NCBI GenBank assembly: GCA_035409945.1
Contig: DAONQC010000005.1
Span: 57,075 to 121,074 of the forward strand
DNA: 64,000 nucleotides
Origin: Clostridia bacterium
GTDB taxonomy: Bacteria > Bacillota > Clostridia > Christensenellales > DTU072
Direction: 5' to 3'
Shown here: positions 17,479 through 55,641 of the stretch, piece by piece
Position numbering within the stretch: position 1 is the stretch's first letter
Layout: each line of letters opens with the position of its first letter
Notes under the pieces: model-generated
Told to the model about the DNA's origin: nothing
The model's database searches: none
What the model saw: the letters and a program-made list of their open reading frames with translations, nothing else
Position numbers and translations under genes: made by a program

Positions 17479-17500
17479 GTTCTACCTCTTTCATTTTGTT

Positions 17501-18485: not shown

Positions 18486-18578
18486 CGTTCTTTTAATCCT
18501 AGTTAATATACAATGTTTTATCTAACTGTTGCTAACCCAATATCTTCTACGAGAAATCGTTATATTTTTTATAACTTG

Positions 18579-18627
18579 TGATTTGCTCCACTAACTACAA
18601 TTTTACTGACTTTTTTGGAGCAAATCA
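18579..18627. promoter_or_regulatory. Perfect 12-bp inverted repeat, candidate operator
   Basis: TGATTTGCTCCA (18579-18590), 25-bp spacer, TGGAGCAAATCA (18616-18627), between the divergent antitoxin and ligase genes. Confidence 0.6.
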
Positions 18628-18808
18628 ACATATTATAATAATCAATTACTTGGTTTTTACATCTTCACAAAACTAAATGTTTATGATAATATATAGTGCT
18701 AAACTAAAGCGTTCAAAGAAGAAGGATGCAAGATGAATATATAAATAATGTTGCTAACATCTACTTAAGTTAAATTCAAACAACATTATTATACGAGGTA
18801 ATAAAAAC

Positions 18809-19432
18809 ATGATTAATAAATCTATTTATCCAAAAACCGTACGCATTCCTATTGAGGGCGACCAAGTAGTTATCACCGAAAAGTTAGACGGATCAAATCT
18901 AGTAATCTTCAAATTAAATGGCAAGTTATATGTTGCTGCTAGAAATTGGATATTTGACATTGAAAACCCTGAAGACTTTAATGAAATCAGCTATTCTGGA
19001 CTACAAAATTGGCTCAAAATTTATAAAAGTACACTTCTAGATACATTACAAGAAGGAGTTGCTATATGTGGCGAATGGCTTGGTATGGGAACAATAAAGT
19101 ATTCCATAGATAAATTTGATAAACGATATTATATGTTTGCTACAGCTAATGTTGATAATGATTTTAATTTATCAAACTTGACGTATTACGAAGAATATTT
19201 TGCCCTTCCTTTCACTAACCAAGAAATCCCATACTTCATAGGAATTAGACCTGAAGTGACTAGGACACAAGTTATGCCTAACAAAAAGTTTTTAGACAGC
19301 TTATATGAAAAATATACTAGCGTTGAAAAACGAGATGTCGAAGGATTTATCGTTATAGTAGCAAATACAATCAAAAAGTATGTTCGTTTAAAAGGTGGAA
19401 AACTAATAGAGCATTTTGTTTTAACTGACTAA
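18809..19432 (+). CDS. Standalone RNA ligase family protein (Rnl2-like adenylation domain only)
   Basis: Covalent nucleotidyltransferase motifs I (EKLDGSN), III (ICGEW), IIIa (YYMF), IV (VEGFIV), V (KKYVR); no OB or C-terminal domain. Confidence 0.8.
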   Translation: MINKSIYPKTVRIPIEGDQVVITEKLDGSNLVIFKLNGKLYVAARNWIFDIENPEDFNEISYSGLQNWLKIYKSTLLDTLQEGVAICGEWLGMGTIKYSIDKFDKRYYMFATANVDNDFNLSNLTYYEEYFALPFTNQEIPYFIGIRPEVTRTQVMPNKKFLDSLYEKYTSVEKRDVEGFIVIVANTIKKYVRLKGGKLIEHFVLTD

Positions 19433-20422: not shown

Positions 20423-20653
20423 ACAGAAATTAAATGTATGAAAACAAGGTTTATTATTCACTTTCATTTGCGTGAATGATAGACAGGGACTGAATGAGAG
20501 ACTAGCAGTATCTTTCTAGCTGAGATGTAAAACACTAGCCATGAGTGTTATAAAAACAGAATATTTGTAACAACTAAAGTTAAGCTTTTATTATGTTGGA
20601 CTACTTGAGTGAATGATAGACAAAAGATGCTAGAACAACTGGATGGGAGGCTA
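20423..20653 (-). repeat. Decayed downstream copy of the GH2 gene 3' end (137-bp offset)
   Basis: GTGAATGATAGACA at 20472 and 20609; copy reads VYHSRK* versus gene VYHSLK*. Confidence 0.75.
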
Positions 20654-32500: not shown

Positions 32501-32883
32501 ATAATATCCATTCCAAGAATTATTGTTTCCGCCCTGTATCCATAGCGGAGCAAAGTTTCTATCCATAGTTATGTTTTGGGTTAGATGGAAATTCCCTGTT
32601 TTAACACCATTGTTGCCAACGTTTCTTAGTTGATGTAAACCATCTTTATTGCTAATAGCAGTAGAGCCCGCAACTGGCTGATATCCTGCCGAGACTTGAC
32701 CAGGCATAAAAGATTGGGCGGAACCATCAAATGTTTCGGCGGCTTCGGCTACTTTTGCAGTATTATTTGCCTCCAATGTTGCGACTGTAGGAGGTTTTAT
32801 AGCTAAAATTAATACCACTACTAAAACTGCAATGAATGCTAAAAATACCACTGAAATATTTGTTATTTTTTCTTGTAACTCAT
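23525..32883 (-). CDS. Giant (about 3100 aa) cell-surface adhesin-like protein: beta-helix/GLUG-like head, many MBG/Ig-like repeats, C-terminal TM anchor; 1-bp frameshift between the ATG (32883) and the main ORF (32851)
   Basis: Repeated K(T/I/E)YG.DP and FTY.G..Q.P units; GG(F/I/A)(V/I)G repeats in the head; terminal ILYIIGGILLLFLVIFTI plus RLRR; AGGAG RBS before ATG 32883. Confidence 0.85.
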
Positions 32884-33304
32884 AATAAAAACTCCTATTT
32901 GCAAACCCAGTCGCTATAGTTTGCTATAATCTACCGCTTTGACCGCCTTATCTTAAATTTAATTTGCACGCAAGACATCACGCGTGCGTGCGTGTAGTTG
33001 TATTTATAGTACCACACAGACATGTGCAAATCAACAAATGAACTCAAAATCATATCGAATGTAGGTGAAAAAATATAGTAAATTTGATGCTTGAATATTT
33101 AAAGCAAAAGTTTAAGTTGCTTGTCTGCTGTCGTAGTAGGAGAGCGGTATAGGTATGTGTATACGTGTCGCAAAATGAGCGTTTGAATAGTGGTTTTAAT
33201 TAAAGTTAAGTGGTGCAAGTGGTTAAGTTGCATGTTATAATATGAATTATCTTATTGATACGCTCAATTAAATGTGTACGATTTAATTATGGCTGGTGGA
33301 ATAT

Positions 33305-35929
33305 ATGTTTAAACATAAGAGTTTGGTCGTTATTGTAGTTATTTTACTTGTGGTTTTACTTACCACAACTTTATTTGCCTGCAATAAAAATAATGGTGGC
33401 GAAAATAGGACGCCTTCAAATGTTGTCATTGTCACCCCACCAGAACTTCCTAAAGATGAAGAGCCTCCTGCACCAAAATACGATGAGTCGCATCCTAGAC
33501 AAAATATGCTTGATTACTATGGACTTTCAGAGTCTGTTTCCCTAACTGAATCTTCTGAGAGCTTATCCGAACAAGCTATTAGACTTTCGATAATAAATAA
33601 CTTTTTTGATACACTGGAAAATACTGAAATTAATATAGAAAAACTAAGGGCGTTTTCAAAGTCAAACCTCTCTCAAATTGACCTATTTATATTCGACACA
33701 ACTCCAACAATTGAAATTGATCCTGCAATCGATATTGATTTAAATCTAACCATTGAGGAGTTTGTTGAAATCACGGGTGCTTACTTTAACGCAGTCAAAC
33801 AAACTGTAAATGATGAAACTCTTTTTGATGATGCTATTTTGAAAGGAAATGAGTATACAAGTAGCATCAATTTAGATGATAAGCCTTTGTATGATAGGTA
33901 CTCATCCCTTGTAGAATTAAACTCATATATTACCAAATTAAGATACCCTTCACCCATCACCGAGGAGAGATATAATCAAGCCATTCAGGCTCTAAATAAT
34001 GCCGGTTTGGAACCCGGAACTGCAGAATCTCCAGATGGGAGTTTTAACTCTGCTTATCTTTTAAATATAGTCAATGTGACTAGTGCTGCGCTTGGCGATG
34101 CAAAAACTAGTTTAGATAATTTACTTAAAGAGAAAGAAGACGTCACCACTGCAATTTCAATGCTAGAAAATTCTCTTGTTTTAGATAATACAAGTGATAT
34201 TCACTTTCCTACAATCTCTAGATGGGCAGATCTTTTTATGGACGGAGGAGCTAGCGTTAATAACCATACATTAGACTGGTTAAGAACTTATGTGTACGCC
34301 TTGCAAGACACCTATCCTAAGACTAAAATCGTGACACCTGAAACCACTAATGGCATCACTAGTTATTGGGTGGAATATTTGTATAATGAACAACTTTGCG
34401 CAAATAAATATTATGAAAACATTGCTTATCCTTACATTAGATATGCTGAAGCCATTTCTCTTAAAAACAACCCTACAATTCCCCCAACCAAATTCATTTT
34501 TGCAACTGGAACTATTGGCGAAGCTATAGAAAGCATGCTTACCGACTATTTAGCTTTGATGTACCATAAAATGCAAGTACAGAACTTCACTAAAAAATTA
34601 AAGACATTACCAAGTGTAGCGGCGTGGACTGAACAGGATATTTCAACATATGTGAATTTACAAACTAACTATTTAAATGCTCAAGTCAACCTGGTGAAGA
34701 ATAATCGCCCTGCTATACAAACATTAATTAATGGTTTAAGGTGCCTTATTCCAAATCACGATTACTACAACATGCGTGAATATTTATCAGGCTGGCTAGA
34801 AGATAGTGAAAAAATGTTACAAATTGAACCTATATCCGAACTCACTCAAACAATTTTCAATGCAGTTAATCCTGATTTAATATCTAGTCTTGTAAGATCT
34901 ATTTCAGAAACAGAAATTACTAATAGACGAAATTTTGGGATATATATGCCAAAAGCTCTAACCTCTATCAAAACATCCTTACCTGAAGTAAGTGAACTCA
35001 CCGATATTTTACTTGACTATACGCATGGACTAACAGGACATGCGAAATATAGAATGATAGAAATAGTAGATGGTATTTTCAGCAGCGAAAACCCTGACCT
35101 ACAATCTCAAAAAGAGGCTTTCGACTCCTATCAACAAGTACTCAAATCCATAGAGCAATTTGTGTTATCAGATGATTTGTCATATATGGAATTTGAATAC
35201 AATACGATAACTGAAAAGCTAGGCGATAACATTACTGCTACAATTTCTAACTTCGAAAATCGGAGCGAAGTTAACACATTTTATAACGAAGTCATACGCT
35301 ACTTAAATACGCTGGTAGACGAAGATACTGATGACATCAATGTTTACTTAAAAAGTGCAATTACTGAAACAGCACAACTATTTGATAATTTAATTTTTGC
35401 TGGTACCATAATGGATACTCTTGCTTCATATGAGCCATACAGCGATGATGATGAAGTGATAAATAACGTAAATGACACTATCGAACAACTTTTGAATCAT
35501 TATATTGAAATAGGAATATTTGCATCTCTACGCAAAGAAGATAGTTTTGAAACCAAAGAAGCAGTTGCTCTTGAATGGTTTAATTCCTTCGTAAACTCAG
35601 ATTACATAAGCGGACAAGACAATTTGCGATTTTTAAATAAAGCTGGTGGCTTTGCCTTTTTGCCAAGCGCTACCGAACAAACCTACGTTATATCGCCAGA
35701 CGCAACAGGGAAAATCGAGATTACAATTACAAAAGATTCTCTTTCACCTAACAGTTCCTTTAGACTTTACAATAGCAATTTTAGATTATCTTTTTCAGGG
35801 GAAGAGCGCGATGATAAGTATATTATAACTGCCCCAGCTTATGCTGGTACACTTTACTACCTTTCCTTTACCGCAAATTCCGGTGGCAATATCTTTTCCT
35901 CATTTACAGGTGTAAAATATAAAGATTAA
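33305..35929 (+). CDS. Hypothetical lipoprotein, largely helical, with a C-terminal beta-sandwich (PPC-like) domain
   Basis: Signal peptide with LFAC lipobox and Pro-rich linker; end segment YVISPDATGKIEITIT...AGTLYYLSF; ORF track starts at 33296, ATG at 33305. Confidence 0.75.
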   Translation: MFKHKSLVVIVVILLVVLLTTTLFACNKNNGGENRTPSNVVIVTPPELPKDEEPPAPKYDESHPRQNMLDYYGLSESVSLTESSESLSEQAIRLSIINNFFDTLENTEINIEKLRAFSKSNLSQIDLFIFDTTPTIEIDPAIDIDLNLTIEEFVEITGAYFNAVKQTVNDETLFDDAILKGNEYTSSINLDDKPLYDRYSSLVELNSYITKLRYPSPITEERYNQAIQALNNAGLEPGTAESPDGSFNSAYLLNIVNVTSAALGDAKTSLDNLLKEKEDVTTAISMLENSLVLDNTSDIHFPTISRWADLFMDGGASVNNHTLDWLRTYVYALQDTYPKTKIVTPETTNGITSYWVEYLYNEQLCANKYYENIAYPYIRYAEAISLKNNPTIPPTKFIFATGTIGEAIESMLTDYLALMYHKMQVQNFTKKLKTLPSVAAWTEQDISTYVNLQTNYLNAQVNLVKNNRPAIQTLINGLRCLIPNHDYYNMREYLSGWLEDSEKMLQIEPISELTQTIFNAVNPDLISSLVRSISETEITNRRNFGIYMPKALTSIKTSLPEVSELTDILLDYTHGLTGHAKYRMIEIVDGIFSSENPDLQSQKEAFDSYQQVLKSIEQFVLSDDLSYMEFEYNTITEKLGDNITATISNFENRSEVNTFYNEVIRYLNTLVDEDTDDINVYLKSAITETAQLFDNLIFAGTIMDTLASYEPYSDDDEVINNVNDTIEQLLNHYIEIGIFASLRKEDSFETKEAVALEWFNSFVNSDYISGQDNLRFLNKAGGFAFLPSATEQTYVISPDATGKIEITITKDSLSPNSSFRLYNSNFRLSFSGEERDDKYIITAPAYAGTLYYLSFTANSGGNIFSSFTGVKYKD

Positions 35930-36085: not shown

Positions 36086-36501
36086 ACCTAGATGTCATTC
36101 TGGGTCAATTTTGTATCTGCAGCTACAATATTTGTACCTATTATGATAATTCTACTCTCTACTAGCCATCTCTTGTACACACCGCAGTGGTTTAATTTCG
36201 GGTTTCGAATCCAAGGCTGTTGACATCTTTGAGTTGAACAGCATCTCCTAGCGCACGTTGCTTGTTTTGCACCTTTATTGCACTAGAGTACAAATAGATA
36301 ATGGTATTGTTGCCATATCTTTCATTCTAGATATATGTAAATCACTTCTCATACTGGAGGCTCAACCTTAGGCGTGCTTGCATTTGCTTGACTAATAATA
36401 TATTTTTTGTTAATATTTTTTAAGTTAAATATAACTGCCATACATGTCAGTAAGCCCAACATCTAAGCTTTTTATATGATATGGGTTTGCAAGGAGATAA
36501 T

Positions 36502-39351
36502 ATGCTTACACTACTTGACATAACGAAAACTTACGGAAAAAAAGAAGTTGAACAAGTTCAAGCACTTAGAGGCCTAAACATTAATTTTAGAAGAAATGAA
36601 TTTGTATCTATTTTAGGACCTTCCGGGTGTGGCAAGACCACCCTATTAAATATTATTGGTGGACTAGACCGATATACATCTGGCGATTTAATTATTGAAG
36701 GCTATTCAACTAAAGAATTTAAAGAATCAGATTGGAATAATTACCGTAACAAAAAAATTGGGTTTGTTTTCCAAACATATAATTTAATCCCCCACCTTAC
36801 CGTAGTAAGGAACGTGGAATTATCTTTAACTATTGCGGGAGTTGGACCCGCAGAACGCAGGCAGCGTGCTCTTGAAGTTTTAGGAAAAGTTGATTTATTA
36901 GATAAGGCAAACAAACGCCCCAACCAACTTTCTGGTGGACAAATGCAGAGAGTTGCAATTGCTAGAGCTTTGATCAATGAGCCTGAAATCATTCTAGCAG
37001 ATGAACCAACTGGAGCTCTTGATAGTGAATCGGGCATACAAGTCCTTGATCTGCTAAAAGAAGTTGCTTCAGATAGGCTTGTCATAATGGTTACACACAA
37101 TTCCGAGTTAGCAAAAAAATACAGTACTCGTATTGTAAATCTATCTGATGGTCTTTTAGTAGAGGATACTAACCCATACTCAATAGAAGAAGCTATTGAA
37201 GATAGCAAAAAGGATTCCGATGGACACTCTGCTTTAGAAGAATTACTAATGCTTACTCAACTTGAAGAAATGTCGAACGATGATATTAAAGCAGACACAG
37301 AAAGTACAGAGATAATAGAAGACTCCACCATTGAATCCTCCTCCATTACAGAAACCAAGAGTCATAAAGCAGGTGATTTTGTTCGGAGAATAATAGAAGC
37401 TCCTAAACGCGCTGTAAAAGTTTTAGCAACAAAGAAGAAACAAAAACAAGAAATAGCCAATGGAACTGTTTTAAATGAGAATGGCGAGGATAAGCCTGTT
37501 AAAAAGCCAGTCAATACTCAAAAGAGACAAAAGGCTGAAAAATCATCTATGTCTATACCTACTGCAGTAGGACTTAGTTTTAGAAACTTAATGAGTAAAA
37601 AAACACGTACTTTTATAACTGCATTTGCTAGCAGTATTGGTATAATCGGTATTTTACTAGTCTTCGCCTTAAGCTCCGGAGCAAATGCATTTATTAGTAA
37701 AAGTGAAGAAAATGCTCTTTCTCAATACCCTATACGAGTTGGAAAAACAAGTTTAAATTATGAAGTTGTAATGAAAATCATGCGGGACCTAGACTCTAGT
37801 AGAGAAGATTATCCTAAAGAAGATGTGATGTATGCAAGACAACTCCTTACTGCCTTTTTGGAAAAAATGCAAGCAGGCGAAATCTTCTCAGACAATGATT
37901 TAGCTGAAGTTAAAAAATATCTTGACCAAAACATGGACACTTTAGAAGAACATGGTTATGTCAAATATGGTTTACAGACCCAAATGCATATATATTCAAA
38001 CTATGCCAAACAAAAAGCTGATGAAGATGGTTATACAAAGCTATCCCCATATTTAGACAGTTTAGAGATATTAGCTAAAAACTTCCCAATCATTGGTACA
38101 TTTTTACCTACACTAAAAGATAAAGGTACCTTTGGGTTTGCAATACCTGAATGGGATGAAATGATTGCAAATGAACATCTTATAAAACAACAATATGAAC
38201 TAGTTGGAGATAATTCAAAGTGGCCTACAAAATATGATGAGGTTGTCATTGTTCTTGATAAGAAAAATCAAGTAAATGACTTCTCGCTCTTTAGTTTAGG
38301 ACTTTTACATGAAGAAGCTCTTACCGATGCTATGGACTTAGAGAGAGGATTAGATACCTATTCTTTTGCAATAGACGAATTGCTTGGTATGGAGTACAAA
38401 ATAGCGACGGGTGCTGATTATTATTACAAGAACGAGGAAGGCAAATGGGATAAACGTCGTCCAACAGATCAAACATCCGAATTTATTGAAGAAACGATGG
38501 TTGATGAAAATGGAAACACTGTGTATAAAAACGTTGTACCTGTCAAAGTTGTCGGTGTAATCCGCCCAAGACCAGGTGTGGAAGTAACCTCTATTAACGG
38601 AGTCATTGGCTATAGAACCGAATTAACTAAAATGCTAATTGATAGAGTTAATAATCACCCCGCAATGCAAGCGCAACTCGCATCTGATGATCCTATATAC
38701 ACATATATAGATCCAAAAGATCCCGAAAACAAAAACAAAAGAAACATAACAACCAAGGCGCAAGTTTTTTCAAGCCTGGGAAGAGTTAATACCGAAGAAC
38801 CAAAATCTATACGTATTTATGCAAAATCATTTGCTGACAAAGAAGCCATACAAAAGATACTTGATGAAGCAAGAATAGATGGCAAACCCATTAAGTATAG
38901 TGATGAACTAACTTTGATTATGGGATTTGTTGAAACCATGGCAACAACTATAACTGGTGTACTAATAGGGTTTTCAGCCATATCATTAGTGGTTTCTTCT
39001 ATAATGATTTCGATAATTATATACACATCAGTCCTTGAACGAAGAAAGGAAATTGGAGTACTACGTAGTCTAGGTGCTAGAAAAATTGATATTTCTAATG
39101 TCTTTAATGCAGAATCTGGCATGATTGGAGTATTATCTGGGCTTATTGCAGCACTCATCTCATTTATACTTTCTATTGGAGTAAGTGTAGCACTTGAAAA
39201 ATCATTTGGGATTGCCGATTTACTGTCACTGCAGTGGCACCATGTCGTCATAATGGTTGCTGTTAGTGCATTACTAAGTTTAATTGCAGGATTTATCCCT
39301 TCACGGATTGCATCAAAACAAGACCCTGCAATTGTATTGCGATCAGAATAG
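36502..39351 (+). CDS. MacB/FtsX-type ABC transporter, fused ATPase and permease
   Basis: GPSGCGKTT, LSGGQMQR, ILADEPTGALD, SVLERRKEIGVLRSLGA, ASKQDP; AAGGAG RBS before ATG 36502 (ORF track starts at 36481). Confidence 0.9.
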   Translation: MLTLLDITKTYGKKEVEQVQALRGLNINFRRNEFVSILGPSGCGKTTLLNIIGGLDRYTSGDLIIEGYSTKEFKESDWNNYRNKKIGFVFQTYNLIPHLTVVRNVELSLTIAGVGPAERRQRALEVLGKVDLLDKANKRPNQLSGGQMQRVAIARALINEPEIILADEPTGALDSESGIQVLDLLKEVASDRLVIMVTHNSELAKKYSTRIVNLSDGLLVEDTNPYSIEEAIEDSKKDSDGHSALEELLMLTQLEEMSNDDIKADTESTEIIEDSTIESSSITETKSHKAGDFVRRIIEAPKRAVKVLATKKKQKQEIANGTVLNENGEDKPVKKPVNTQKRQKAEKSSMSIPTAVGLSFRNLMSKKTRTFITAFASSIGIIGILLVFALSSGANAFISKSEENALSQYPIRVGKTSLNYEVVMKIMRDLDSSREDYPKEDVMYARQLLTAFLEKMQAGEIFSDNDLAEVKKYLDQNMDTLEEHGYVKYGLQTQMHIYSNYAKQKADEDGYTKLSPYLDSLEILAKNFPIIGTFLPTLKDKGTFGFAIPEWDEMIANEHLIKQQYELVGDNSKWPTKYDEVVIVLDKKNQVNDFSLFSLGLLHEEALTDAMDLERGLDTYSFAIDELLGMEYKIATGADYYYKNEEGKWDKRRPTDQTSEFIEETMVDENGNTVYKNVVPVKVVGVIRPRPGVEVTSINGVIGYRTELTKMLIDRVNNHPAMQAQLASDDPIYTYIDPKDPENKNKRNITTKAQVFSSLGRVNTEEPKSIRIYAKSFADKEAIQKILDEARIDGKPIKYSDELTLIMGFVETMATTITGVLIGFSAISLVVSSIMISIIIYTSVLERRKEIGVLRSLGARKIDISNVFNAESGMIGVLSGLIAALISFILSIGVSVALEKSFGIADLLSLQWHHVVIMVAVSALLSLIAGFIPSRIASKQDPAIVLRSE

Positions 39352-41302: not shown

Positions 41303-42991
41303 TTAAATAAATAAAATGTTCCCTACTACTAACTTACGCCCCTTTATTCTTATTGACCTTACTAAATCCCACGATGGGAGTGGTTTCATTGTTTTATCTT
41401 TGAAATCATGCTCACTGAACCGACAGCTGGTAAAAAACTCATTACTTTTAAGCATTTTATAAGCTGTAAATTCCACGATTTTTTTATCTATGCTACATTG
41501 TAAAACAATTTCTACCCTTCCTTCAAAATCCGAATATAATTCTATTTGCAAATCTTTATCCTCGACATCTTGTAAGCTTAATTCTAGTGGATAAATCTTC
41601 ATTGCGTTAGAGTCTGTAGTTATCCCTTTTGCGCCAGATGGTATTTTTGTCATACGTAACGTATTCTCCAAAAGCACTTCTCCATCAAACTCTTCTTTGA
41701 ACAAGCCTATTCCGTCTGTAACATTGTATAAAACCACTAATTTGTTACTTTGTTTAGTTTGGTCTTCCCCTTCAATGTCATAATCTTCTAGTTCGATATA
41801 TTCCACTAACGATGAAATGGTAAGTCCATTAGCATATATAACTTCTGCAAAAGTAAATAAAGGCACATCCGCTTCATAGATCTTTGGAGACGCTATGTAT
41901 TCGTTATATGAAATAGAAATGGCTTTTTCAAAATGCCAACCTCTAAGCGCGTGGTTATATTCTCCGTAACTATAATAAACCCTAACTTCTTCAATTAACT
42001 GACTAGGATCGCAATCAACATCAAAATAAACTTTATTTTCTTCATTTACTCTAATTTCTACTTTTGGTCGTGTGGGTATTGGTAAATTTTTAAATATCGC
42101 ATTAATCCAAGCAAGGACGCTACGATAACCGCTTGGAGGTAAATAGTCAGTTATGCCGGGATGGATTATGGTAAATATCTCGTTTTCACCACAAAGTGTT
42201 TGTAAGTTTATTAGCCTGTCCATGTCGGCAAATTCAGCATTAGAACCTATCGCAATAAGAGTAGGTATTTTTATATTTCTTGCATAAGAAACAGCTGCAA
42301 CTGCTGAAAGCCAACCAATTCTTTCCTGCGTAATGTCAATGGCTATTTCTGAATCTTCCCCAAACTTATTTGTTCCTAGATATTCTTTATATCCCGAACC
42401 ATTTATGCAAGCCATTCCTTTTATATTATGTTCAACCGAACTACCTACAGTCTGCATCCCTACTTCTATAGAATCACCTAATGTAACTAAAACAACCTCT
42501 TTTTCTGGATACATCTTATCAATAAAAACAAGTGTCCTTTTGACTATCTTTGAATATGTATATTGATTACTTTCAAAAGCAGTGTCCTCAAGATGCTCAA
42601 GCCTATCTTTGGTTTCCACGTTATATAGGCAATATTCTAAACTTTTGGGATATTTTGTAGGATAAGATGAAAGCCCTGTTAGATCGGGAGAGATGACAAT
42701 ATATCCCTGATCTACCAATGATAAAGCTAAACTGGTAGCTGGAGGAGCTGAATAATTACCAAGAAGGAGTATTATTTTATTTGTATCAAATATTGGCGTT
42801 GTAACTTTTATACTAGCTTGGACCATTCCATCTTCTACTTTTATCGCATCTATTTGATATCTGCTTAATACATAACTATCTTTTTGGGTAGTAGCTAACT
42901 CTTGGATATTTAAATCCATAGCTTTAGGATCATAATCTTTCCATAGTTCTTGTGGAACAACAATTTTTTTTCTAATAAAATCTTTCATCAT
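41303..42991 (-). CDS. Alpha/beta-hydrolase-fold protein with C-terminal beta domains; catalytic motif appears degenerate
   Basis: GYIVISPDLTG and NIKIPTLIAIGSN segments; no GxSxG at the expected nucleophile elbow (VTLGDSIEVG). Confidence 0.55.
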   Translation of the reverse strand: MMKDFIRKKIVVPQELWKDYDPKAMDLNIQELATTQKDSYVLSRYQIDAIKVEDGMVQASIKVTTPIFDTNKIILLLGNYSAPPATSLALSLVDQGYIVISPDLTGLSSYPTKYPKSLEYCLYNVETKDRLEHLEDTAFESNQYTYSKIVKRTLVFIDKMYPEKEVVLVTLGDSIEVGMQTVGSSVEHNIKGMACINGSGYKEYLGTNKFGEDSEIAIDITQERIGWLSAVAAVSYARNIKIPTLIAIGSNAEFADMDRLINLQTLCGENEIFTIIHPGITDYLPPSGYRSVLAWINAIFKNLPIPTRPKVEIRVNEENKVYFDVDCDPSQLIEEVRVYYSYGEYNHALRGWHFEKAISISYNEYIASPKIYEADVPLFTFAEVIYANGLTISSLVEYIELEDYDIEGEDQTKQSNKLVVLYNVTDGIGLFKEEFDGEVLLENTLRMTKIPSGAKGITTDSNAMKIYPLELSLQDVEDKDLQIELYSDFEGRVEIVLQCSIDKKIVEFTAYKMLKSNEFFTSCRFSEHDFKDKTMKPLPSWDLVRSIRIKGRKLVVGNILFI

Positions 42992-46360: not shown

Positions 46361-47836
46361 TTATTTTCCATATTTTTCGTCTAGCATGCGTTTATTTTGT
46401 GCGGTTCGATTAATAGATTCTCTACTAGATGGGTGCTTAAAGTTTTTAGCAAAAGCGTATAAACTCTTCAGCCTTAGTAATCCTCTTGGGTTACAATCTT
46501 TTATGGGAGCATATTTAATATTTAACTTATCAAATATTGAAAGTATTGGACCTAGTCGCTTTACAAAATCCTTATAAGTACCACCATCATTCCAAGCCTT
46601 TTCTGCGACTGCAATTAGCCTTGGATAGGTCATATACTCCACTCTATCTACAGTTTTCACATATTCAGTCCAAAGAGGTGACTCTAACCCTATAATATTT
46701 TCTGCTATAAACCCATCTTTTTGGAAATTATAGTTATATGTTTTACGAAGAGGTGTCATTCCGTATGGGTAATCTAGATAATAGTGAAAGAAAGGCGATA
46801 TTAGCCCCTTGCTACCACCTGCAACATGTCTAACTGCAGCAGCTTTACTTTTCTTAGTTTGTGTCCAATAATGAACTGCTATGCTTTTTCTTGCATTTTC
46901 GCCTATCATTCCATCATTCCAATTTAATACTTTTTTGCCAGCTTTTTCGCAATATGCTGCCACTCTCGACATGAAATGTGCTTGAAGCTCATCTTCATCT
47001 TTAAGTCCATTATCCTTTATAGTCTTTTGACAATCTGGACAATTTATCCATTTAATCCTTAAAGCCTCATCGCCACCTAAATGAATATATTCAAATGGGA
47101 ATAATTCAAACACCTCGTCAAGCACATCAAACAAAAATTGATATGATGTTTCCTTCCCTGCACAACACACATCTTCAAATATGCCAAAAGCTTCTTTAAC
47201 TTCACAACCATTCCCATCACAAGATAAAAGAGGGTAAGCTGCGATTGCTGCTGAAAAGTGCCCTGGTATATCAATTTCTGGCATAACATCTATATGTTTG
47301 CTCTTTGCATACGCTACAACATCTTTAATTTCTTCTTTTGTGTAAAAACCTTCTACTGGAACTCCATCTCCTCTAGTTTGTTTTCTTTTAGCTCCTACTT
47401 CAGTTAATAGAGGATATTTGTCAATTTGAATTCTCCAGCCTTGGTCTTCTGTCAAATGCCAATGGAAAACATTAAGCTTTAAGTAGCTTATTGCATCAAT
47501 TTGTTTCTTTATTTCATCTACAGTAAAAAAATGCCTACAAGTATCTAGCATATATCCTCTATATGCAAACTTTGGCTCATCTATAATTTCTACATTTGGG
47601 ATAGATCCATTTTCAGCAAGTTGTTTAAATGTAACCAAGGCATAAAAATGTCCTTTTTCTGTACTTGCTATAGATGTAACTCCATCTTCATTTATTAAAA
47701 GTTTATATCCTTCGCTTTTAATACTGTCGTCATACACTTTAGAAATGCCCGACTCTTTATAACTAAAAGTTTTGTCGGAAATTATCTTTATCTCCTGTGG
47801 TAATGGCACTACTTTAATCACAACTAACCTCCACAT
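46361..47836 (-). CDS. Beta-N-acetylhexosaminidase, GH20
   Basis: YRGYMLDTCRHFF, FHWHLTEDQGWR, PEIDIPGH, HLGGDE catalytic pair; no signal peptide. Confidence 0.92.
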   Translation of the reverse strand: MWRLVVIKVVPLPQEIKIISDKTFSYKESGISKVYDDSIKSEGYKLLINEDGVTSIASTEKGHFYALVTFKQLAENGSIPNVEIIDEPKFAYRGYMLDTCRHFFTVDEIKKQIDAISYLKLNVFHWHLTEDQGWRIQIDKYPLLTEVGAKRKQTRGDGVPVEGFYTKEEIKDVVAYAKSKHIDVMPEIDIPGHFSAAIAAYPLLSCDGNGCEVKEAFGIFEDVCCAGKETSYQFLFDVLDEVFELFPFEYIHLGGDEALRIKWINCPDCQKTIKDNGLKDEDELQAHFMSRVAAYCEKAGKKVLNWNDGMIGENARKSIAVHYWTQTKKSKAAAVRHVAGGSKGLISPFFHYYLDYPYGMTPLRKTYNYNFQKDGFIAENIIGLESPLWTEYVKTVDRVEYMTYPRLIAVAEKAWNDGGTYKDFVKRLGPILSIFDKLNIKYAPIKDCNPRGLLRLKSLYAFAKNFKHPSSRESINRTAQNKRMLDEKYGK

Positions 47837-48102: not shown

Positions 48103-48840
48103 TTATTCGGTAATGATACCTATAAATACTTCTCTTACGTCAGGTAATCTATAGTCTTTTTCTCCATCTGCTGACTCTATGTTTGTTATATATAGGGTTC
48201 CATCTTTTTGTGATACGGTTGTCTGAACTTCAAATAATGTATCTCCGTTTTGTATAGATTTAAATCCATCGCCAGAACATAATAAAACTCTAAACTTCCT
48301 GTCAGCTAGAGAATAAAGGGCGAAATCAAAGCCAGTTATTTTAGGCACAATACTATCAATTGTTGCACTTGTTGTGCAAGATATCGTCATCATTATTGAA
48401 TTCATCTCTTTTCCTTCGGGAAGTCCACTTGCCGTTATTTTGATAGTAGAGGTATTTCCTTCTTGGGAGGTCCTAGCTGCATTTACTCTAAGGGGTGTAT
48501 CAACAACTTTGTCGTGCACAACAGAATATAACCAATCGATAGATGCGGAGGCGTACGTTATAGTCATAATCGCATTTTCTTTAGTTGTAGCACTATTAAA
48601 ACCTTTGACCATTTCTGGTGTCAGTTGAAATGTCTCTATACCAGTACGAAAATGTGCATATACTTTTATATCAGAATACTTAATTTGCTCATCTAACGCG
48701 TATATATCTTTAAGCCCTTCTATCTCAATTTTCTTAGCTATTTTTTTACTGTTATCGCAGGATGAAAGAACCATGATTGAAGTCAAAATCAACATGCTAA
48801 TCAATACTAGCGATAATATTTTTTTAATACTCTTCCTCAT
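48103..48840 (-). CDS. Lipoprotein with an Ig-like (Big_3-type) domain and a C-terminal cohesin-like domain
   Basis: LSSC lipobox; LTPEMVKGFNS...MTITY Ig-like pattern; EGNTSTIKIT.SGLP...MMTIS...FRVLL...IQNGDTLFEV resembles cohesin strand order (by eye). Confidence 0.65.
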   Translation of the reverse strand: MRKSIKKILSLVLISMLILTSIMVLSSCDNSKKIAKKIEIEGLKDIYALDEQIKYSDIKVYAHFRTGIETFQLTPEMVKGFNSATTKENAIMTITYASASIDWLYSVVHDKVVDTPLRVNAARTSQEGNTSTIKITASGLPEGKEMNSIMMTISCTTSATIDSIVPKITGFDFALYSLADRKFRVLLCSGDGFKSIQNGDTLFEVQTTVSQKDGTLYITNIESADGEKDYRLPDVREVFIGIITE

Positions 48841-49225
48841 GCTTCCTCTCTTTCGTATGCATACTCAGCAAGATTTCTTGCAAACAACACTAAATCCAAT
48901 TTAAGTTACTTTACCGTCTCCATTTAAATCCATAACATATTTTTATTTTCACTTCCAAGTAGTATTTGAGCCATTTCCTCTATTTTCATGTGGGCTGTGA
49001 CGCTTTCTTGCAAACAACACTATGTTACTTTACCGCCCCTATTTAAATCCATAACAGATTTTTCTCTTTTGAGTAATGTCTCAGCGGTTTTTATGTTTTT
49101 ATGTAGACAGTGCAAACTTTCTTGCAAACAACACTAAATCTAATTGTGTTACTTTACCGTCCCCATTTAAATCCATAACATATTTTTTATTTTCACTTCT
49201 AAGTAGTATTTGTGCCATTTCTTCC
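48837..49225 (-). repeat. Three copies of the dockerin-coding 3' end of the protease gene (one functional, two decayed)
   Basis: TTTCTTGCAAACAACACTA at 48874, 49004 and 49118; GTTACTTTACCG and ATTTAAATCCATAACA in all three. Confidence 0.95.
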
Positions 49226-52200
49226 AAGTCTGCAGATGTACTGATGCCATCACCATTTGCGTCTCCAAACACATTAACCTCGAAGTCATATATCACAACG
49301 TCGTCTGCATTTTTAAATACTACTCTATCTCCCGTTCTAAGCGCTCTAGAACCCTCCCCAGTGCTGACACTCGAACCATTTTTATCTAGCATATGTTTTG
49401 TTAAATAATCAGCATTGGAGAACAAGTTAAATGCTTCCGAAACGAAAACACCCTCATCTTTTATAGCTACTACTCTATTTTGTTTATCTACAGTAATGCC
49501 AGTTTTTGTCTTATAGCTAAGCACACTCTCCCCATCTTTGCTTACATATACACCAAACGAAGCAACAGCAGCATCTATGTTTTGTCCAGTTATAGTTACT
49601 GTTTGAGACCCAACTTGAGTGGGGTTATAATTGATTTTTAGATTTGCTGCTTTTATAGCCGCTCCCTCTAAAGATAACTTTCTACTGCTACGATATTCAA
49701 CCTCAAGTTTTAATCCTAAAATATTCAAAGCTTGTCCGTATTGATACTCTCTCTGGTTAGGAGTCTTAACAATAGTTATGTTATCTTCTTTATCTATGAC
49801 TTCGACAGATATAGCCTTTGTAACAGTAAGCGTTACTATCTTCGGATTTTCTGGCGACACAGTAATCATTATGTCATTTGGGGTTCTTCGTGTCGGCGTT
49901 ACTGTCACTACATCTTTATTATTTACTCTTGTTACTGTTATATATCCTGGCTCGCCAGCACCATTTAAGGTCATTTCTTCTCTATAAGTAAATACAACAT
50001 TCTGAGTCCCTATTGCCGTCTTATCGTAGTTGTGTGAATATCTGACTGCACCTATTCTATTATTTTCACCATTTGCATATGTTAGTCTCACCTCTTGAAT
50101 TGCTAAAGATTCGTTATATAAGTATGTAAACTTACTTAAATTCACATCCAATCTAGATGGATTATTCCTAACATAACAAGTTACTTGTTGACTCCAAACA
50201 ACCTCTTGACCTATTCGATACTGTAAAGTTATTGCTTGGCCATTAGCATCAACGTTTGCTCCATTCATTTCGGGGTACACTTTGTAATTTGGCGAACCTG
50301 CATCAAAATACTCTTCTTCTTTTGCCCCTGATTCATATTCAATCTCGAATTTTGCTGACTGTGGATTAAATTCTTCTCCGTACCAGTAATCTATTCTAGG
50401 CTCTTCTATCATGCGTATTTGCTTAAATACATCCAAAACTGTTAGTATGAACTCTTTTGAGCCTGTATAATCAGCTTCTGCATATTCTACAGTGACCTTT
50501 ATCTCACCAAGTGTAGTATTGTAATTTGTTCCTTCTATTATAATACCTTCTTTTTCTCTACCTATGAACACACCATTTTTCTCATACTTAATGGAGTACG
50601 TGCTAGGACTAACTAAAACTTTTCCCCTTAAAGTCATCTCTACATATACGTCAATAGTCATTTTCCCATTGTATGAAATGGTTTGATTTTCTATTGTATG
50701 TATATATTTAGGGGTATCAATAATCTTAATTTTAGTGTATTTCCACTCATTTAAATATCTCATACCAAGGGGCTGTACTACATTAATCAGTTCGGGATCA
50801 TACACCATTTCCATTGGTGTTCTTATATCTATTCCACCAGCTTGCAACGATCTTCTAACTCTTAAATCTTGAGGCTTGGGGTCTCCTGTAAGTGGCGTAT
50901 ATTTAAAAGTAGTTATGTCTTCCTCACCCAAGAGAATATAGTTACTAGGATTAGCAGGGTCTTTCTTGGAAATTCCCCAGGAAGAGGATTGTGATAGACC
51001 TCTTAAAGTAATTTGTAGCCTACTTAATTCATATTCCTCTATTAACACACCATCTTCATACCTTTGAATGTATATTACTAAATCAGATATTTGTTCGGTA
51101 CCGGGATTAGATGCATCATATTCTAAATACTTATTAAAATTCTCCATTCTGAACCAGATATCAGGAGTAGTTTCTTTTGCTCCAATCTTAAATATTTTGC
51201 CTTGATTTTGTACAAACTCTAAATCAATGCTAAAATCCTTTGTAACTTCAAAGTAATGTATATACCCAGGTTGATCTTTATACTTGTATGTGACTTCACC
51301 TTCAAGCAGTACCTCTATGTTAACTGGAGTAGTTGTTAGTTCATTACCTGTTGCGGTGTCGTTGTATTTAACAACTACGCTTTGATATCCTTCAATGGCT
51401 TTGTTATATCCTTCGATTGTTAAGTTGGGTGAATCAAAGTCTTCTAACCTTTCATTACCAGAACGCATGCTCAAAACAACTTGTTCAGTTACACTTATGT
51501 CTTCCCCAAAAGGATATGCAAGTATTCTTGGTGAAAACGATATGTTTTCTACCCAGTCCGAAACAGTTATGTTATGTTTAAGTTCATGTATATCGTTTGT
51601 AAATACTGGATCTGGAACTCTATATGTTAGCGTTTGTCTGCCTAGCTTTTCGCTATTATATCCTTGGAAAGAGGTAGGTTGGACATCATGGTTAGTCGAA
51701 GTATTATCGCTATATGTTATCTTTATTTTTCCCCTTTCACCTGGCGCAATTGATAATGCTTCTCCTAATAAATAATTAGACTTTGGAATTTCAGTAAACT
51801 CCACAAATGTTACATACTTACTAACTATGACACTAACAACAGCACTTGCGCCTTGGTATGTAATAGCTGCATTCTTTGTACCAGTAGTTGAAGTATCGCA
51901 AGTTATCATATCGGGCGTTACTGGTATAACTACTGGAGCTTCTGCACCTATCGTTACTGTCATTATCAAAGAGTCAGGATTGATGGATTCATTTTGTTTA
52001 ACTTTTAATGCTATGGGGTTTGATGGTGTTTCACCCACCTTTTTTACTGTTATGCTAACACCAGCGCTTACGACTGTAACAGCACAAGTATCAGTATATT
52101 CCACATCATCAATCGTAATAGACACCGTAATTATCGCTTCACCAACTGACTGCGCAGTTATTCTCCCTGTCACACTATCAACGGATACGATATCTGGGGC

Positions 52201-55200
52201 ACTTGACGTAAATGTGGGAGAAACGGTTCCTACATTAGTCGCATCAAATGGAATATAACTATACTCTAATTGTACCGATTTAGAAGTGGCTATTCTAACA
52301 CTCTCTTGCGATATTGCTATGCCAGTAAGAGGCTTATCCTCATACGTGGTAATGGTAATACTCTTAGATATACTAGTTCCATTTATTCTTGCTGTAATTT
52401 CAGCCGTTCCTACAGAAAGCGCAGTTAACTTAGCTGTTTTGTGGGTTGTCCCCTCTCCTAACATGTCAACTCTTATTACAGATTCATTTGACGATGTATA
52501 TATAACTCTTTGGTAAGTTGTGCTAGCAGGACTTATATCCACGGATATAGTGCTTGTAGTTCCAACCTTTATTCTACGCCCATCGAGAGGTACAAGATCT
52601 GGATTACTTACGCTGTTTGCGCGTACATAGGTTCCTACTGGATATATTAAATTGACCATTGGATTATTTGTTCCAAACTGTGAAACTCCAATACCAGTAA
52701 ACTCAACAACGCCATCCTCTCTCAAAAATACATTGTGATGTTCGGATGCCGCCATGTCAATTATGTCGTATAGCCCGCTGACTTCGCATTGAGATGAAGA
52801 TGTATCTCCTATCGCTTTCACAGTGCCATTTGGCATTAGTGCTAGTAAGTGTCTTGACCCTGCAACTATGTTAGTAGCGCCTGTTAAACTAGCTAATGCA
52901 TCCGATAGCGGGATACCCCCTCCTACATTAAATTCACCATATATTCCTACTGTGCCATCTGTCCTTAGTACCGCACTGAAACTATCTCCTGCTGTTATCT
53001 TTGCAACAGAGGTTTCTTGTAAAAGCCCAGATTGTCTTTCTAAATCACCAGTAGCAAACACCTTACCTGTGTTGTCTAGACCTACTACATGCCTTGCGCC
53101 AGCAGCTATACTGACTATATTTTTCCATCCACTCACGTTTAGTTGGTAAAAGTCGTTTAAGCCCATTGATAGTACAGTCCCATCATTTGCTAGTCCGTAT
53201 GATGTATAACTACCCGCGACCACTTGTTTTACGTTATACCAACTATCTACTACCGTTTCGCCATAGAAATTATCTCCAAGTGCTGTTACTGTCATGTCTT
53301 TTTTGAGTGCAAGTAGATGTTTTCTTCCTACAGCAATGTCTAAAACGTTTGTTTTTCCACCTACTTCCCAAATGCCAGTTGTAATATCACCAGATACAAC
53401 AACTGTACCTCCATTATTTATGCCCACACTAATTCGCGGTCCTGCAAAAACTTTAGCTTGAATAGTATCGGAAGCAATAATTTGGCTCCATATAGAGGAA
53501 TTGCCCTCTACGTTGTAAGTACCTAACACTTTTTGTTTACCTGCTGCATTTATTACAGTTACTCTTAATTTTGTAGGCATCGCCGATTCGCTTTCAAAAG
53601 GTTCGGTATAGAATACACTAGGTGGCTGCATATTCCCCTTACTATTTACTACAAAAGGAGCATCAAAAACTGTTTGACCTAATTCTGTGTAACTATTTTT
53701 AAATTCACCTAAATTCAAATTACTTGTATTAATAACACTATACGCATTGTCTAAAAGTTCAAGTTTTACATTCGCTAGATATTGTAAATTGATATCTGCA
53801 AATCTAATCTTCGCTTGGACACCACTCCAATCAGAACCATTATATAATGCAATATTTTCAGCTGTAATTTTTCCATCAAATGCATTATCTGGGATTGCCA
53901 ATGTTCCAGTAGGTAAACTAATTCTAAACATAGCAAGGTCACTTCCTACAGAAAGTGCTTCTATTTCTATCTTGCTATTTACACCATCGCTGTAAAATAT
54001 GTTTGTATATTCATATTTAGTTGTCGATGTCCCACTTCCAACGCGGGAAAAATGTGCATTATGAGGAGATAAATTAGCTCGAGCTACATCTTTTGCCGAG
54101 TTGTTATACACATTGTTAGTGGTGGAAATCATATCTACTTTAGGACGAAACACATGTACTTCATCTGGATAAAGACTAGACTGGAATCTAGCATCTCTAT
54201 TTCCTACACTACTGCTAAAATCATGGGGCTCTCTTACTCTATACACAATAAGTCCAGTACCAGGCGCTGCAGCATCATAACTTGAAGAGATGGTAGGATT
54301 TCTATATTCCACCATAAAATATTCGTTGGGTCTTTCGTTTAACGTAATTCTATATGATAAAACTTCAGTTTTAGGAGTTATTGCTACTGGTTTTAAAGAA
54401 TATACGCCACTATCTACCACATCAACTATCTGACTACTAAGGATACCTCCAACATACTTATCTCTTGTGTATGTCAACATATACTGTGGTGTATTGGTAT
54501 TTTGAGCCATCAAATCCCATCTGCCGACAGGTACATAGTCATAGTTATAATGGTAAAAATCTGGAGCGCCTAAAACGTGCCCCATTTCGTGACATAAAAT
54601 CCCAGTGTTTATAGATGTTGAAAAATTGAAGGAATAGTCACCTACTTTAGCTCCACCAAGAGTACTATACCCGCTTCCGTCGATACCATCTAAATTCCAG
54701 CTATGTGGCCAAAGAAGTCCGCCCCAAGTTGATTCATTACTCCCACATATTAAAAAGCTAACACTATCTACATATCCATCGTTATTGATATCGACATTTT
54801 TGCCAGTTAAATCAAATTTGTTTTTTGTAGCATTTATTGCGCCTGTAAGAAGCTCACTTTCTTTTTGTCTTCTTGTCGCTGTGTTTGAATCCTTAATGTT
54901 ATAGTCTTGTCTATTTCCACCATTATGCACATACACAGCCCCAGATTCTCGGGGTAAGATACTGTTTATAGTAACATCATGGTTGCTCATTACCTCATAG
55001 TAGTTTCTAAGGGAATTATTTACACCATTAAAATACATATCAAAATTTTCGATTGCAGCATTAACTGTTGAATCTAGAGTATCATTGAATTTAATGAGTA
55101 TTACAAAATTAACGATAGTTCTTTTACCTGTTGCGCCGGCAAATAATGGTTGTTGGGGCACTTCTTCAGTAATTTCTTCATTATCATCACCATATGTGGT

Positions 55201-55641
55201 TATAAATCCACCATTCGTACTGGCCCTATCTTCCTTACTCAAAAGTTCGGGATTTAGTGATAAGTTTATATCCTCTACAGTAATGGTTTCAACTTTTGCC
55301 TCTCCTTCTAATACAGAAACACCAGTCGATATAACTTTCCCATTATTATCTAGCGTTGCATATGTTAAAGAATCATCATCTCTAAGTAAAACGTTACCAT
55401 TTTCATCGTGATAATATCTAAATTTTTCATCGCCACTTTCTTTAAAGTTAATCTTCTCTCCATTAACTTCCATACTTCTTTCGAAAGTGTACTTGAATAA
55501 ATCTCCCTGTTTTGTAAAATCCTCATAACCTCTATCCGATCCATTACGGATAAAAGCGAACACACCCACCGCAAAAACTGATAACACAAATATCGTTATC
55601 AAAGCGTATGTCATAAATTTTTTAGTGTTAAATTTCTTCAT
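49099..55641 (-). CDS. Secreted multidomain M6-family (immune inhibitor A-like) metalloprotease with RCC1-like repeats, Big_2/Big_3 Ig-like domains and C-terminal dockerin
   Basis: Signal peptide; DINNDGYVD, LWPHSW, HEMGHVLGAPDFY, WDLMA, EYFMVEYR; RCC1 repeats such as IAVGRKHLLALKKDMTVTALGDN; terminal GDANGDGISTSAD...DLNGDGKVTQLD. Confidence 0.88.
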   Translation of the reverse strand: MKKFNTKKFMTYALITIFVLSVFAVGVFAFIRNGSDRGYEDFTKQGDLFKYTFERSMEVNGEKINFKESGDEKFRYYHDENGNVLLRDDDSLTYATLDNNGKVISTGVSVLEGEAKVETITVEDINLSLNPELLSKEDRASTNGGFITTYGDDNEEITEEVPQQPLFAGATGKRTIVNFVILIKFNDTLDSTVNAAIENFDMYFNGVNNSLRNYYEVMSNHDVTINSILPRESGAVYVHNGGNRQDYNIKDSNTATRRQKESELLTGAINATKNKFDLTGKNVDINNDGYVDSVSFLICGSNESTWGGLLWPHSWNLDGIDGSGYSTLGGAKVGDYSFNFSTSINTGILCHEMGHVLGAPDFYHYNYDYVPVGRWDLMAQNTNTPQYMLTYTRDKYVGGILSSQIVDVVDSGVYSLKPVAITPKTEVLSYRITLNERPNEYFMVEYRNPTISSSYDAAAPGTGLIVYRVREPHDFSSSVGNRDARFQSSLYPDEVHVFRPKVDMISTTNNVYNNSAKDVARANLSPHNAHFSRVGSGTSTTKYEYTNIFYSDGVNSKIEIEALSVGSDLAMFRISLPTGTLAIPDNAFDGKITAENIALYNGSDWSGVQAKIRFADINLQYLANVKLELLDNAYSVINTSNLNLGEFKNSYTELGQTVFDAPFVVNSKGNMQPPSVFYTEPFESESAMPTKLRVTVINAAGKQKVLGTYNVEGNSSIWSQIIASDTIQAKVFAGPRISVGINNGGTVVVSGDITTGIWEVGGKTNVLDIAVGRKHLLALKKDMTVTALGDNFYGETVVDSWYNVKQVVAGSYTSYGLANDGTVLSMGLNDFYQLNVSGWKNIVSIAAGARHVVGLDNTGKVFATGDLERQSGLLQETSVAKITAGDSFSAVLRTDGTVGIYGEFNVGGGIPLSDALASLTGATNIVAGSRHLLALMPNGTVKAIGDTSSSQCEVSGLYDIIDMAASEHHNVFLREDGVVEFTGIGVSQFGTNNPMVNLIYPVGTYVRANSVSNPDLVPLDGRRIKVGTTSTISVDISPASTTYQRVIYTSSNESVIRVDMLGEGTTHKTAKLTALSVGTAEITARINGTSISKSITITTYEDKPLTGIAISQESVRIATSKSVQLEYSYIPFDATNVGTVSPTFTSSAPDIVSVDSVTGRITAQSVGEAIITVSITIDDVEYTDTCAVTVVSAGVSITVKKVGETPSNPIALKVKQNESINPDSLIMTVTIGAEAPVVIPVTPDMITCDTSTTGTKNAAITYQGASAVVSVIVSKYVTFVEFTEIPKSNYLLGEALSIAPGERGKIKITYSDNTSTNHDVQPTSFQGYNSEKLGRQTLTYRVPDPVFTNDIHELKHNITVSDWVENISFSPRILAYPFGEDISVTEQVVLSMRSGNERLEDFDSPNLTIEGYNKAIEGYQSVVVKYNDTATGNELTTTPVNIEVLLEGEVTYKYKDQPGYIHYFEVTKDFSIDLEFVQNQGKIFKIGAKETTPDIWFRMENFNKYLEYDASNPGTEQISDLVIYIQRYEDGVLIEEYELSRLQITLRGLSQSSSWGISKKDPANPSNYILLGEEDITTFKYTPLTGDPKPQDLRVRRSLQAGGIDIRTPMEMVYDPELINVVQPLGMRYLNEWKYTKIKIIDTPKYIHTIENQTISYNGKMTIDVYVEMTLRGKVLVSPSTYSIKYEKNGVFIGREKEGIIIEGTNYNTTLGEIKVTVEYAEADYTGSKEFILTVLDVFKQIRMIEEPRIDYWYGEEFNPQSAKFEIEYESGAKEEEYFDAGSPNYKVYPEMNGANVDANGQAITLQYRIGQEVVWSQQVTCYVRNNPSRLDVNLSKFTYLYNESLAIQEVRLTYANGENNRIGAVRYSHNYDKTAIGTQNVVFTYREEMTLNGAGEPGYITVTRVNNKDVVTVTPTRRTPNDIMITVSPENPKIVTLTVTKAISVEVIDKEDNITIVKTPNQREYQYGQALNILGLKLEVEYRSSRKLSLEGAAIKAANLKINYNPTQVGSQTVTITGQNIDAAVASFGVYVSKDGESVLSYKTKTGITVDKQNRVVAIKDEGVFVSEAFNLFSNADYLTKHMLDKNGSSVSTGEGSRALRTGDRVVFKNADDVVIYDFEVNVFGDANGDGISTSADLEEMAQILLRSENKKYVMDLNGDGKVTQLDLVLFARKFALST

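Follow-up and report, generated by a model that had tools for sequence, protein, structure and literature searches.

The window analysed here is a 64,000-nucleotide (nt) stretch of contig DAONQC010000005.1 from a Clostridia bacterium whose genome (G000) is estimated to be 94% complete. Our subject is a pair of neighbouring open reading frames (ORFs) on its minus strand, at coordinates already given by an earlier interpretation made from the DNA alone (the sequence-only reading): one of 2180 amino acids (aa) at 49099-55641, encoding a presumably secreted, multidomain M6 zinc metalloprotease that ends in a dockerin, and, next to it, one of 245 aa at 48103-48840, encoding a predicted lipoprotein that ends in a cohesin-fold domain.

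By sequence criteria the larger protein is an M6 metalloprotease. Its catalytic domain (aa 181-468, 54238-55101) scores above cut-off for both Peptidase_M6 (PF05547; 32.1 bits, cut-off 22) and TIGR03296 (121.7 bits, cut-off 110.8), and contains the zinc motif HEMGH at aa 351-355, then GAPDFY, with the downstream Asp361; HExxH and the downstream PD are retained in 52/52 listed M6 homologues, and a phmmer search of the domain against the PDB matched no solved structure. Ahead of it lie a basic and hydrophobic segment (aa 1-30, 55552-55641), on hydropathy a probable Sec signal peptide that would be cleaved, and an N-terminal region. Behind it come an RCC1-like repeat region (aa 727-1001, 52639-53463; RCC1_2 matches in four stretches), probably a beta-propeller, and an immunoglobulin (Ig)-like stalk (49540-52326) with a Big_2 domain (aa 1106-1173) and six Big_3-like repeats between aa 1204 and 2034, these last homologous to an Ig spacer in the lipoprotein. 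The RCC1-like repeats are missing from the short form of the protease (~930-1050 aa) that characterises genus g2, and from genera g3, g5 and g17. A small all-beta module (aa 2042-2125, 49267-49518) stands just before the dockerin; it is confidently modelled, and a structural search with it gave no clear fold match, only weak Ig-like ones (best Z 5.5). The N-terminal segment, with a hydropathy of 2.8, is the sole strongly hydrophobic stretch of the protein: beyond aa 40 no 19-residue window has a mean hydropathy above 1.56, and no LPxTG-like motif occurs in the 2180 residues. The sequence-only reading had described the M6 zinc motif, the RCC1-like repeats, the Ig-like domains and a terminal dockerin, as well as the lack of a transmembrane or LPXTG anchor; Pfam and TIGRFAM scores above cut-off bear out the former, and the hydropathy and motif scans the latter.

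The dockerin (aa 2126-2180, 49102-49266) consists of two calcium-loop repeats and is the only one found in the genome, a survey for others having turned up no second. Scored against Dockerin_1 (PF00404), as had been suggested, protease aa 2126-2175 reach 33.3 bits (cut-off 22.9). Positions G2126, D2127, G2132 and D2138 are invariant in 64/64 aligned rows; the second calcium loop is degenerate in genera g8, g3 and g5, and in the window genome both loops, like both ORFs, are intact. The model of this end, with a predicted local distance difference test (pLDDT) value of 95.9, has the three-helix dockerin fold, and a VIA structural search with it returned dockerins in all of its top 10 rows, among them 2vn5_B (Z 9.8, root-mean-square deviation (rmsd) 1.4 Å over 56). 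The top 10 of a Foldseek search are also dockerins, but at E values of only 0.04-0.14. By score, duplicated repeats and predicted fold we assign it as a type I-like dockerin. Extra dockerin proteins, unrelated to the protease and with a different dockerin pattern, occur in a few g2 genomes (G022, G010 and G027; L111, L112 and L113).

The 245-aa protein begins with a signal II sequence whose lipobox cysteine is Cys28. A cysteine follows the hydrophobic stretch in 72/72 lipoprotein homologues and Lgt is present in the window genome, and on these criteria the protein is predicted to be lipidated. There follow a Big_3-like Ig spacer (~aa 38-108, 48517-48729), with a weak Big_3 match at aa 44-100 (E 0.008, below cut-off), and the cohesin-fold domain (~aa 113-245, 48106-48504), recognised by a family profile and by its predicted fold. 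The lipid-anchored single cohesin of the sequence-only reading thus stands as a prediction, with the addition of a spacer that it had overlooked and that is missing from the homologue in G080.

The profile was built from the aligned C-terminal domains of 68 genomes, and against the PDB its first eight rows are all cohesin-containing chains, led by the NagJ cohesin of Clostridium perfringens (E 4e-9) and followed by 5nrk, 3ul4 and 4uyp. An AlphaFold2 model of the domain (pLDDT 92.5) is a nine-stranded sandwich with the last strand split; the leading Foldseek rows with this model are cohesins (TM 0.71-0.75), and in a VIA search of 48,161 chains cohesins fill the first 19 rows, with Z from 15.4 to 11.0 (best rmsd 2.6 Å over 129 residues), the first non-cohesin having a Z of 10.3. 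Non-cellulosomal cohesins solved from C. perfringens and Archaeoglobus are among the structural matches. PF00963 is matched by 9 of the 68 family homologues at E up to 0.1 (best 1e-10), leaving 59 unmatched. The domain is therefore, by modelled fold and by profile, a divergent cohesin outside the curated PF00963, and we file it as such, and not as a member, because the window protein falls below the Pfam cut-off; a genome-wide PF00963 match in the lipoprotein gene (14.5 bits, ~aa 34-153) is out of cohesin register and was given no weight. The cohesin-like pattern that had been noticed in the last ~130 aa is accordingly matched by fold and family profile, and where a generic Ig or carbohydrate-binding-module fold had been named as the outcome that would tell against it, the model proved to be a cohesin. 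The comparison with PF00963 proposed at the same time gave no match for the window lipoprotein itself; the 68-homologue profile reached solved cohesins. This domain is the only match to the family cohesin profile in the genome, so that its one dockerin and its one cohesin-profile match are encoded by two adjacent genes.

The adjacency extends through the family. Among its 81 genomes the lipoprotein search matched 73, a few of these being Ig-only matches; loci were examined from 74 genomes, and in 73/74 the cohesin gene directly follows a frame that encodes a dockerin or, in G049, shares that frame. An M6 domain was seen in 57 of these 73 upstream frames, the other 16 being cut by flank or contig ends (one is also split). 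Outside this count, G015 and G021 show adjacent matches in the search tables, G054 is split at a contig end, and in G039 and G064 the cohesin lies at the edge of a contig. The two genes overlap in 65 of the 72 separate pairs, in 29 cases by ATGA. Across a sample of the order, the cohesin profile picked up 22/22 family genomes and, weakly, 2/378 others, and the M6 domain 22/22 and 5/378, respectively. Five out-of-family M6 homologues have neither a dockerin nor a neighbouring cohesin, and two of them end in hydrophobic tails. The two out-of-family cohesin-profile matches (G122 and G444) are not this module, that of G122 consisting of ordinary Pfam cohesins in other architectures; likewise the single 2367-aa frame of G049 (L036:2420-9523), which keeps the lipoprotein signal and cysteine inside it, was considered as a fusion and is read, since it occurs in one genome only, as a lost stop or an assembly slip. 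The two-gene pair is nearly universal and single-copy in the family, and the loss of adjacency in relatives that the sequence-only reading had named as a point against itself was not what the loci revealed.

Co-variation between the two proteins was computed over 64 pairs and ~8,800 inter-protein column pairs. The strongest inter-protein signal, a top pair picked after the fact, connects Asp229 of the cohesin to residue 2167 of the dockerin (z 6.3): 51 pairs have Asp229 together with Thr or Ser at 2167, 10 lack both, 3 have the Asp without Thr/Ser, and none has the reverse. The 10 pairs without both residues are spread over five separate clades, in two of which a sister row has lost the Thr only. 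When nine other dockerin positions were tested against Asp229 only the neighbouring 2166 tracked it too, and ten further pairs, read by eye, all agree with the rule (10/10). Residue 2167 is position 11 of the second dockerin repeat, and positions 10 and 11 of a repeat are reported to determine specificity (PMC8063739); in C. thermocellum they contact cohesin residues Asn37, Asp39, Gly123 and Ala125 (PMC5772552). Asp229 is placed at the strand 8/9 hairpin of the family cohesin. Gly123 and Ala125 would lie at the end of strand 8, alongside Asp229 and the conserved S-D-G motif; this alignment of Asp229 with the C. thermocellum residues is tentative, since a phmmer search of the PDB with a single cohesin homologue gave no useful match. 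Of the two repeats only the second conserves positions 10 and 11 (Leu in 58/64, Thr in 46/64), which suggests a single binding mode, through the second dockerin repeat.

We think it likely that the dockerin-tipped M6 protease and the cohesin-fold lipoprotein form a one-to-one, calcium-dependent tether that keeps the protease at the membrane's outer surface. Both proteins would be exported by Sec, the protease signal being cut and Cys28 of the lipoprotein being lipidated by Lgt; the dockerin would bind two calcium ions and dock on the cohesin mainly via its second repeat, in one mode; and the Ig stalk would hold the head, made up of the RCC1 and M6 regions, clear of the membrane. The gene overlap would supply both partners in step, which fits a fixed ratio between them. 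Calcium-dependent binding, whose absence the sequence-only reading had named as a refutation, is favoured indirectly, by the co-variation and by a paralogous protease that ends in a transmembrane tail instead of a dockerin. The pair is not a cellulosome: there is one cohesin and one dockerin, the dockerin is on a protease, and the lone GH5-family gene, elsewhere in the genome, has no dockerin. Of the window proteins scanned, which made up part of the window ORFs, none was annotated as a cellulase, and to that extent the earlier statement that the window holds none is supported.

Several results weigh against the tether. A Pfam scan of the last ~135 aa of the window lipoprotein gave no cohesin match (PF00963 gathering cut-off 24.1). 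Exposed positions on the presumed dockerin-binding face (strands 8-3-6-5) are not significantly more conserved than those of the back (0.37 vs 0.33, P 0.27, with exposure guessed from alternation). In one genome, G045 (68% complete), an unrelated gene lies upstream of the lipoprotein gene, and no cohesin match was found in G052 (92% complete) or G040 (79% complete). Several g2 proteases carry a lipobox-like cysteine of their own, so that a tether would be less necessary there. As to the co-variation, 30 shuffles gave a mean maximum z of 5.4 (sd 0.5) and a largest of 6.7, above the observed 6.3, and the Fisher P of 2e-9 for the association of Asp229 with residue 2167 ignores kinship. The window pair, moreover, is one of the three exceptions, with Asp229 facing Gln-Leu at 2166-2167, and its cohesin departs from the family consensus at conserved Ala, Tyr and Ser positions.

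These last deviations also speak for the rival that survives best, though we hold it to be improbable: that the family tether is real, but that its interface has been weakened or lost in the window genome and its nearest relative, where a transmembrane-anchored paralog has taken over surface proteolysis. The state of the junction between the genes could be read in the same way, the overlap having been lost and the gene end duplicated. The 258-nt gap (48841-49098, minus strand) is filled by two decayed tandem copies, ~120 nt each, of the dockerin-coding gene end, present in the window genome only among those aligned (G053 and G055 do not show them); contigs of two DNA runs, possibly the source of the assembly, match it without differences. 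A paralog of the protease does exist (G000:C4:13933-19956, L106:4434-10457), with M6, RCC1 and Ig domains and 30% identity over ~1,400 aa, and it ends in a hydrophobic tail followed by lysines, with neither a dockerin nor a cohesin neighbour; among the 81 genomes only the window genome has such a second M6 copy. It groups with the proteases of genus g8 (support 1.0; FastTree, 28 selected domains), which bear dockerins, and was possibly acquired from that lineage. Against a weakened interface, however, both ORFs and both calcium loops are intact, and the nearest relative, G053, shares the deviations (its dockerin is 86% and its cohesin 64% identical to those of the window genome) yet has no second copy, which fits a re-tuned interface instead. 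Contigs from two RNA libraries of one study also cover both genes and bridge the junction, though DNA carry-over is possible; they are compatible with co-transcription, and no strand, level or single transcript can be read from them. Scans for promoters and terminators yielded no more than the numbers expected by chance.

The junction also bears on the "relic ATGA" from which the sequence-only reading had concluded that the genes were once translationally coupled. The overlap is there, one frame of the last decayed copy ending in a TGA that overlaps the lipoprotein ATG. In G053, however, a normal stop is followed by a 26-nt spacer homologous to that same stretch, so the local overlap probably arose as the copy decayed and is a by-product of the duplication. 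We have accordingly rejected it as proof of past coupling in the window copy; coupling as a rule of the family, with overlap in most pairs, is what remains of the claim.

A second rival, which we judge decidedly improbable, holds that the protease is retained by an uncut N-terminal segment or by a lipid of its own, and that the cohesin-dockerin contact merely braces, matures or regulates it, or that the cohesin has another ligand. The strength of the N-terminal hydrophobic segment and the lipobox-like cysteines of several g2 proteases lend this some colour, as does the processing of the M6 protease PrtV at both ends (PMC2613228), which makes release after docking possible. But the paralog, whose N-terminus is of the same kind, still has a membrane tail in place of the dockerin, and the dockerin therefore appears to sit in an anchor slot; as for another ligand, a search of the genome revealed neither a second dockerin nor a second cohesin. 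It is scarcely credible, finally, that the lipoprotein ends in a mere generic beta-sandwich of Ig or adhesin type and that the two genes adjoin through ordinary synteny: the window protein does lack a Pfam cohesin match, adhesin and pilin domains score Z 9-10, and a GH20 beta-hexosaminidase gene (46361-47836, minus strand; a possible third gene of the unit) also often adjoins, directly after the pair in 50/74 loci, but the structural and profile searches rank cohesins first throughout, some homologues match PF00963, and the dockerin-cohesin adjacency, with its overlap, persists where GH20 has been lost.

Of the systems already known, the closest in structure are those of C. perfringens (NagJ, the family-33 hydrolase cohesins and the NagH dockerin; 2jh2, 2vo8, 2w1n and 2ozn), which supply the best matches (E 4e-9; Z 15.4 and 14.1) and are also non-cellulosomal. 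According to the PDB titles, however, the C. perfringens cohesins are modules inside large glycoside hydrolases, whereas the window cohesin is a stand-alone lipoprotein without a catalytic domain; the two kinds are 16-18% identical, and the partner in the window is a protease. A single cohesin likewise holds a dockerin protein on the cell in OlpA and OlpC of C. thermocellum (3ul4, 4dh2), ScaE of Ruminococcus flavefaciens and Sca2 of R. bromii, and dockerin-borne peptidases on surface cohesins are described for all three of these species (PMC4611034, PMC12484212): Sca2 is bound by the dockerins of peptidases (PMC4611034), ScaE by a cysteine peptidase, and the double dockerin of an S8 protease prefers the cell-bound ScaD (PMC12484212). 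Those cohesins are anchored by S-layer homology (SLH) modules or sortase, the two routes named in reviews (PMC12484212, PMC5817068), and serve many dockerins per genome; the window family has a predicted N-terminal lipid and one client, from the adjoining gene. In its gene arrangement the pair most resembles ClcC-ClcD of Cellulosilyticum lentocellum, also adjacent genes for one divergent cohesin and one dockerin enzyme in a two-component complex, but ClcC has a cellulose-binding module, binds a GH5 cellulase and anchors it to the substrate, in contrast to the M6 cargo and membrane anchor proposed here (PMC13487519). One cohesin and one dockerin are also reported for R. bicirculans (PMC4611034). 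The anaerobic methanotrophic (ANME) archaea have many cohesin and dockerin modules, but their M6-like domains are on cytochromes (PMC9012536), and Saccharophagus has lipobox enzymes and, separately, cohesin-like modules whose binding role is putative (PMC2386152). With immune inhibitor A and PrtV (PF05547, TIGR03296) the window protease shares HExxH and the downstream Asp; it differs from them in its RCC1 repeats, long Ig stalk and dockerin, and its host, an anaerobe of the environment or the gut, shows no sign of being a pathogen.

Single cohesin-dockerin pairs and dockerin-bearing proteases are thus already published, and what sets this pair apart is its anchor, its dedicated client and its operon form. 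A natural lipid-anchored cohesin paired with an M6 protease was not found in the full-text literature searched. If the tether is true, membrane lipid would be a third route of cohesin anchoring beside SLH and sortase, and the plug-and-socket module would here serve a protease, with no link to cellulose digestion, as a unit of two genes that is single-copy and nearly universal. Since the cohesin is invisible to Pfam in most members of the family, anchors of this kind are probably under-represented in surveys of non-cellulosomal cohesins. With their co-varying contact, the seventy natural pairs would also provide a test bed for the rules of cohesin-dockerin specificity and a source of possibly orthogonal partners for surface display.

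As to what the tethered protease does, we would give first place, tentatively, to feeding: it would cut outside proteins or glycoproteins near the cell, and the linked GH20 enzyme, presumed cytoplasmic, would trim the imported sugars, a role favoured because that enzyme has no visible signal peptide. The next candidate, rather doubtful in our view, is processing of the cell's own giant surface proteins, with which the retention of a single copy almost throughout the family would also agree. At 20601-23117 (minus strand) lies the gene of a GH2 enzyme that has mannosidase-type domains and likewise no visible signal peptide; together with GH20 it would fit the breakdown of imported glycan fragments.

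As to the envelope on which the tether would work, searches with positive controls found sortase in 0/81 family genomes and SLH domains in 0/81. In the window genome there was no match to a penicillin-binding protein (PBP) transpeptidase, Mur ligase, MraY-type enzyme or FtsW/RodA; the division and cell-wall cluster is reduced to a mraZ-like gene, rsmH, a putative ftsL, ftsA and ftsZ on one contig (G000:C1:17989-22598), the last four being neighbours with no N bases between them, and in the corresponding gap two relatives hold a PBP, Mur ligases, MraY, FtsW, a MurA-type enzyme and FtsQ, none of which matched the window genome by tblastn. No transpeptidase was found in any of the 5 genomes of the window genus, in either g8 genome, or in G029 or G008, and 72/81 genomes have one; Mur ligases are absent from 4/4 further g1/g8 genomes, the control G056 having them. 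Peptidoglycan synthesis thus appears to have been lost in the genus of the window genome, and the distribution suggests peptidoglycan-less Clostridia, possibly through more than one loss. Reports of wall loss for this group were not met with in the full-text literature searched, and the apparent loss merits a study of its own.

Without a wall, proteins of this genus could be anchored only in the membrane. Wall loss was nevertheless rejected as the origin of the lipid anchor, since 72/81 genomes keep penicillin-binding proteins and nearly all have the module, which is therefore older than the loss. A larger view, which we regard as unlikely, would make the pair a core envelope machine of a sortase- and SLH-less family of Clostridia, its lipid-anchored cohesin building the surface from the membrane and kept through peptidoglycan loss into a wall-less, Mollicute-like state, in which the tethered protease would mature or remodel a coat of giant lipoproteins that replaces the wall. 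Large surface proteins are encoded here: one of 3108 aa in the window (23525-32851, minus strand) has seven MBG_2 matches and a C-terminal hydrophobic tail, and a rough pattern scan of the genome shows very long lipoprotein-like frames, up to ~7,500 aa on C13 and of 3,000-4,000 aa on C2 and C7.

Among the remaining genes of the window, a predicted lipoprotein of 877 aa (33296-35929, plus strand; no Pfam match) adjoins a gene for a fused ABC ATPase-FtsX permease (36481-39351, plus strand). A 562-aa protein without a Pfam match (41303-42991, minus strand) has apparent homologues, judged by eye, after the cohesin gene in G029 and G017, and may therefore belong to the ancestral neighbourhood of the pair. 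A small island at 15930-19432 contains, by eye, a nucleotidyltransferase and regulator pair, presumably of the AbiE toxin-antitoxin type, together with another regulator-like gene and a gene of the RNA-ligase family (18809-19432, plus strand); the plus strand of this last gene, as of the 877-aa lipoprotein and permease genes, was set by direct translation.

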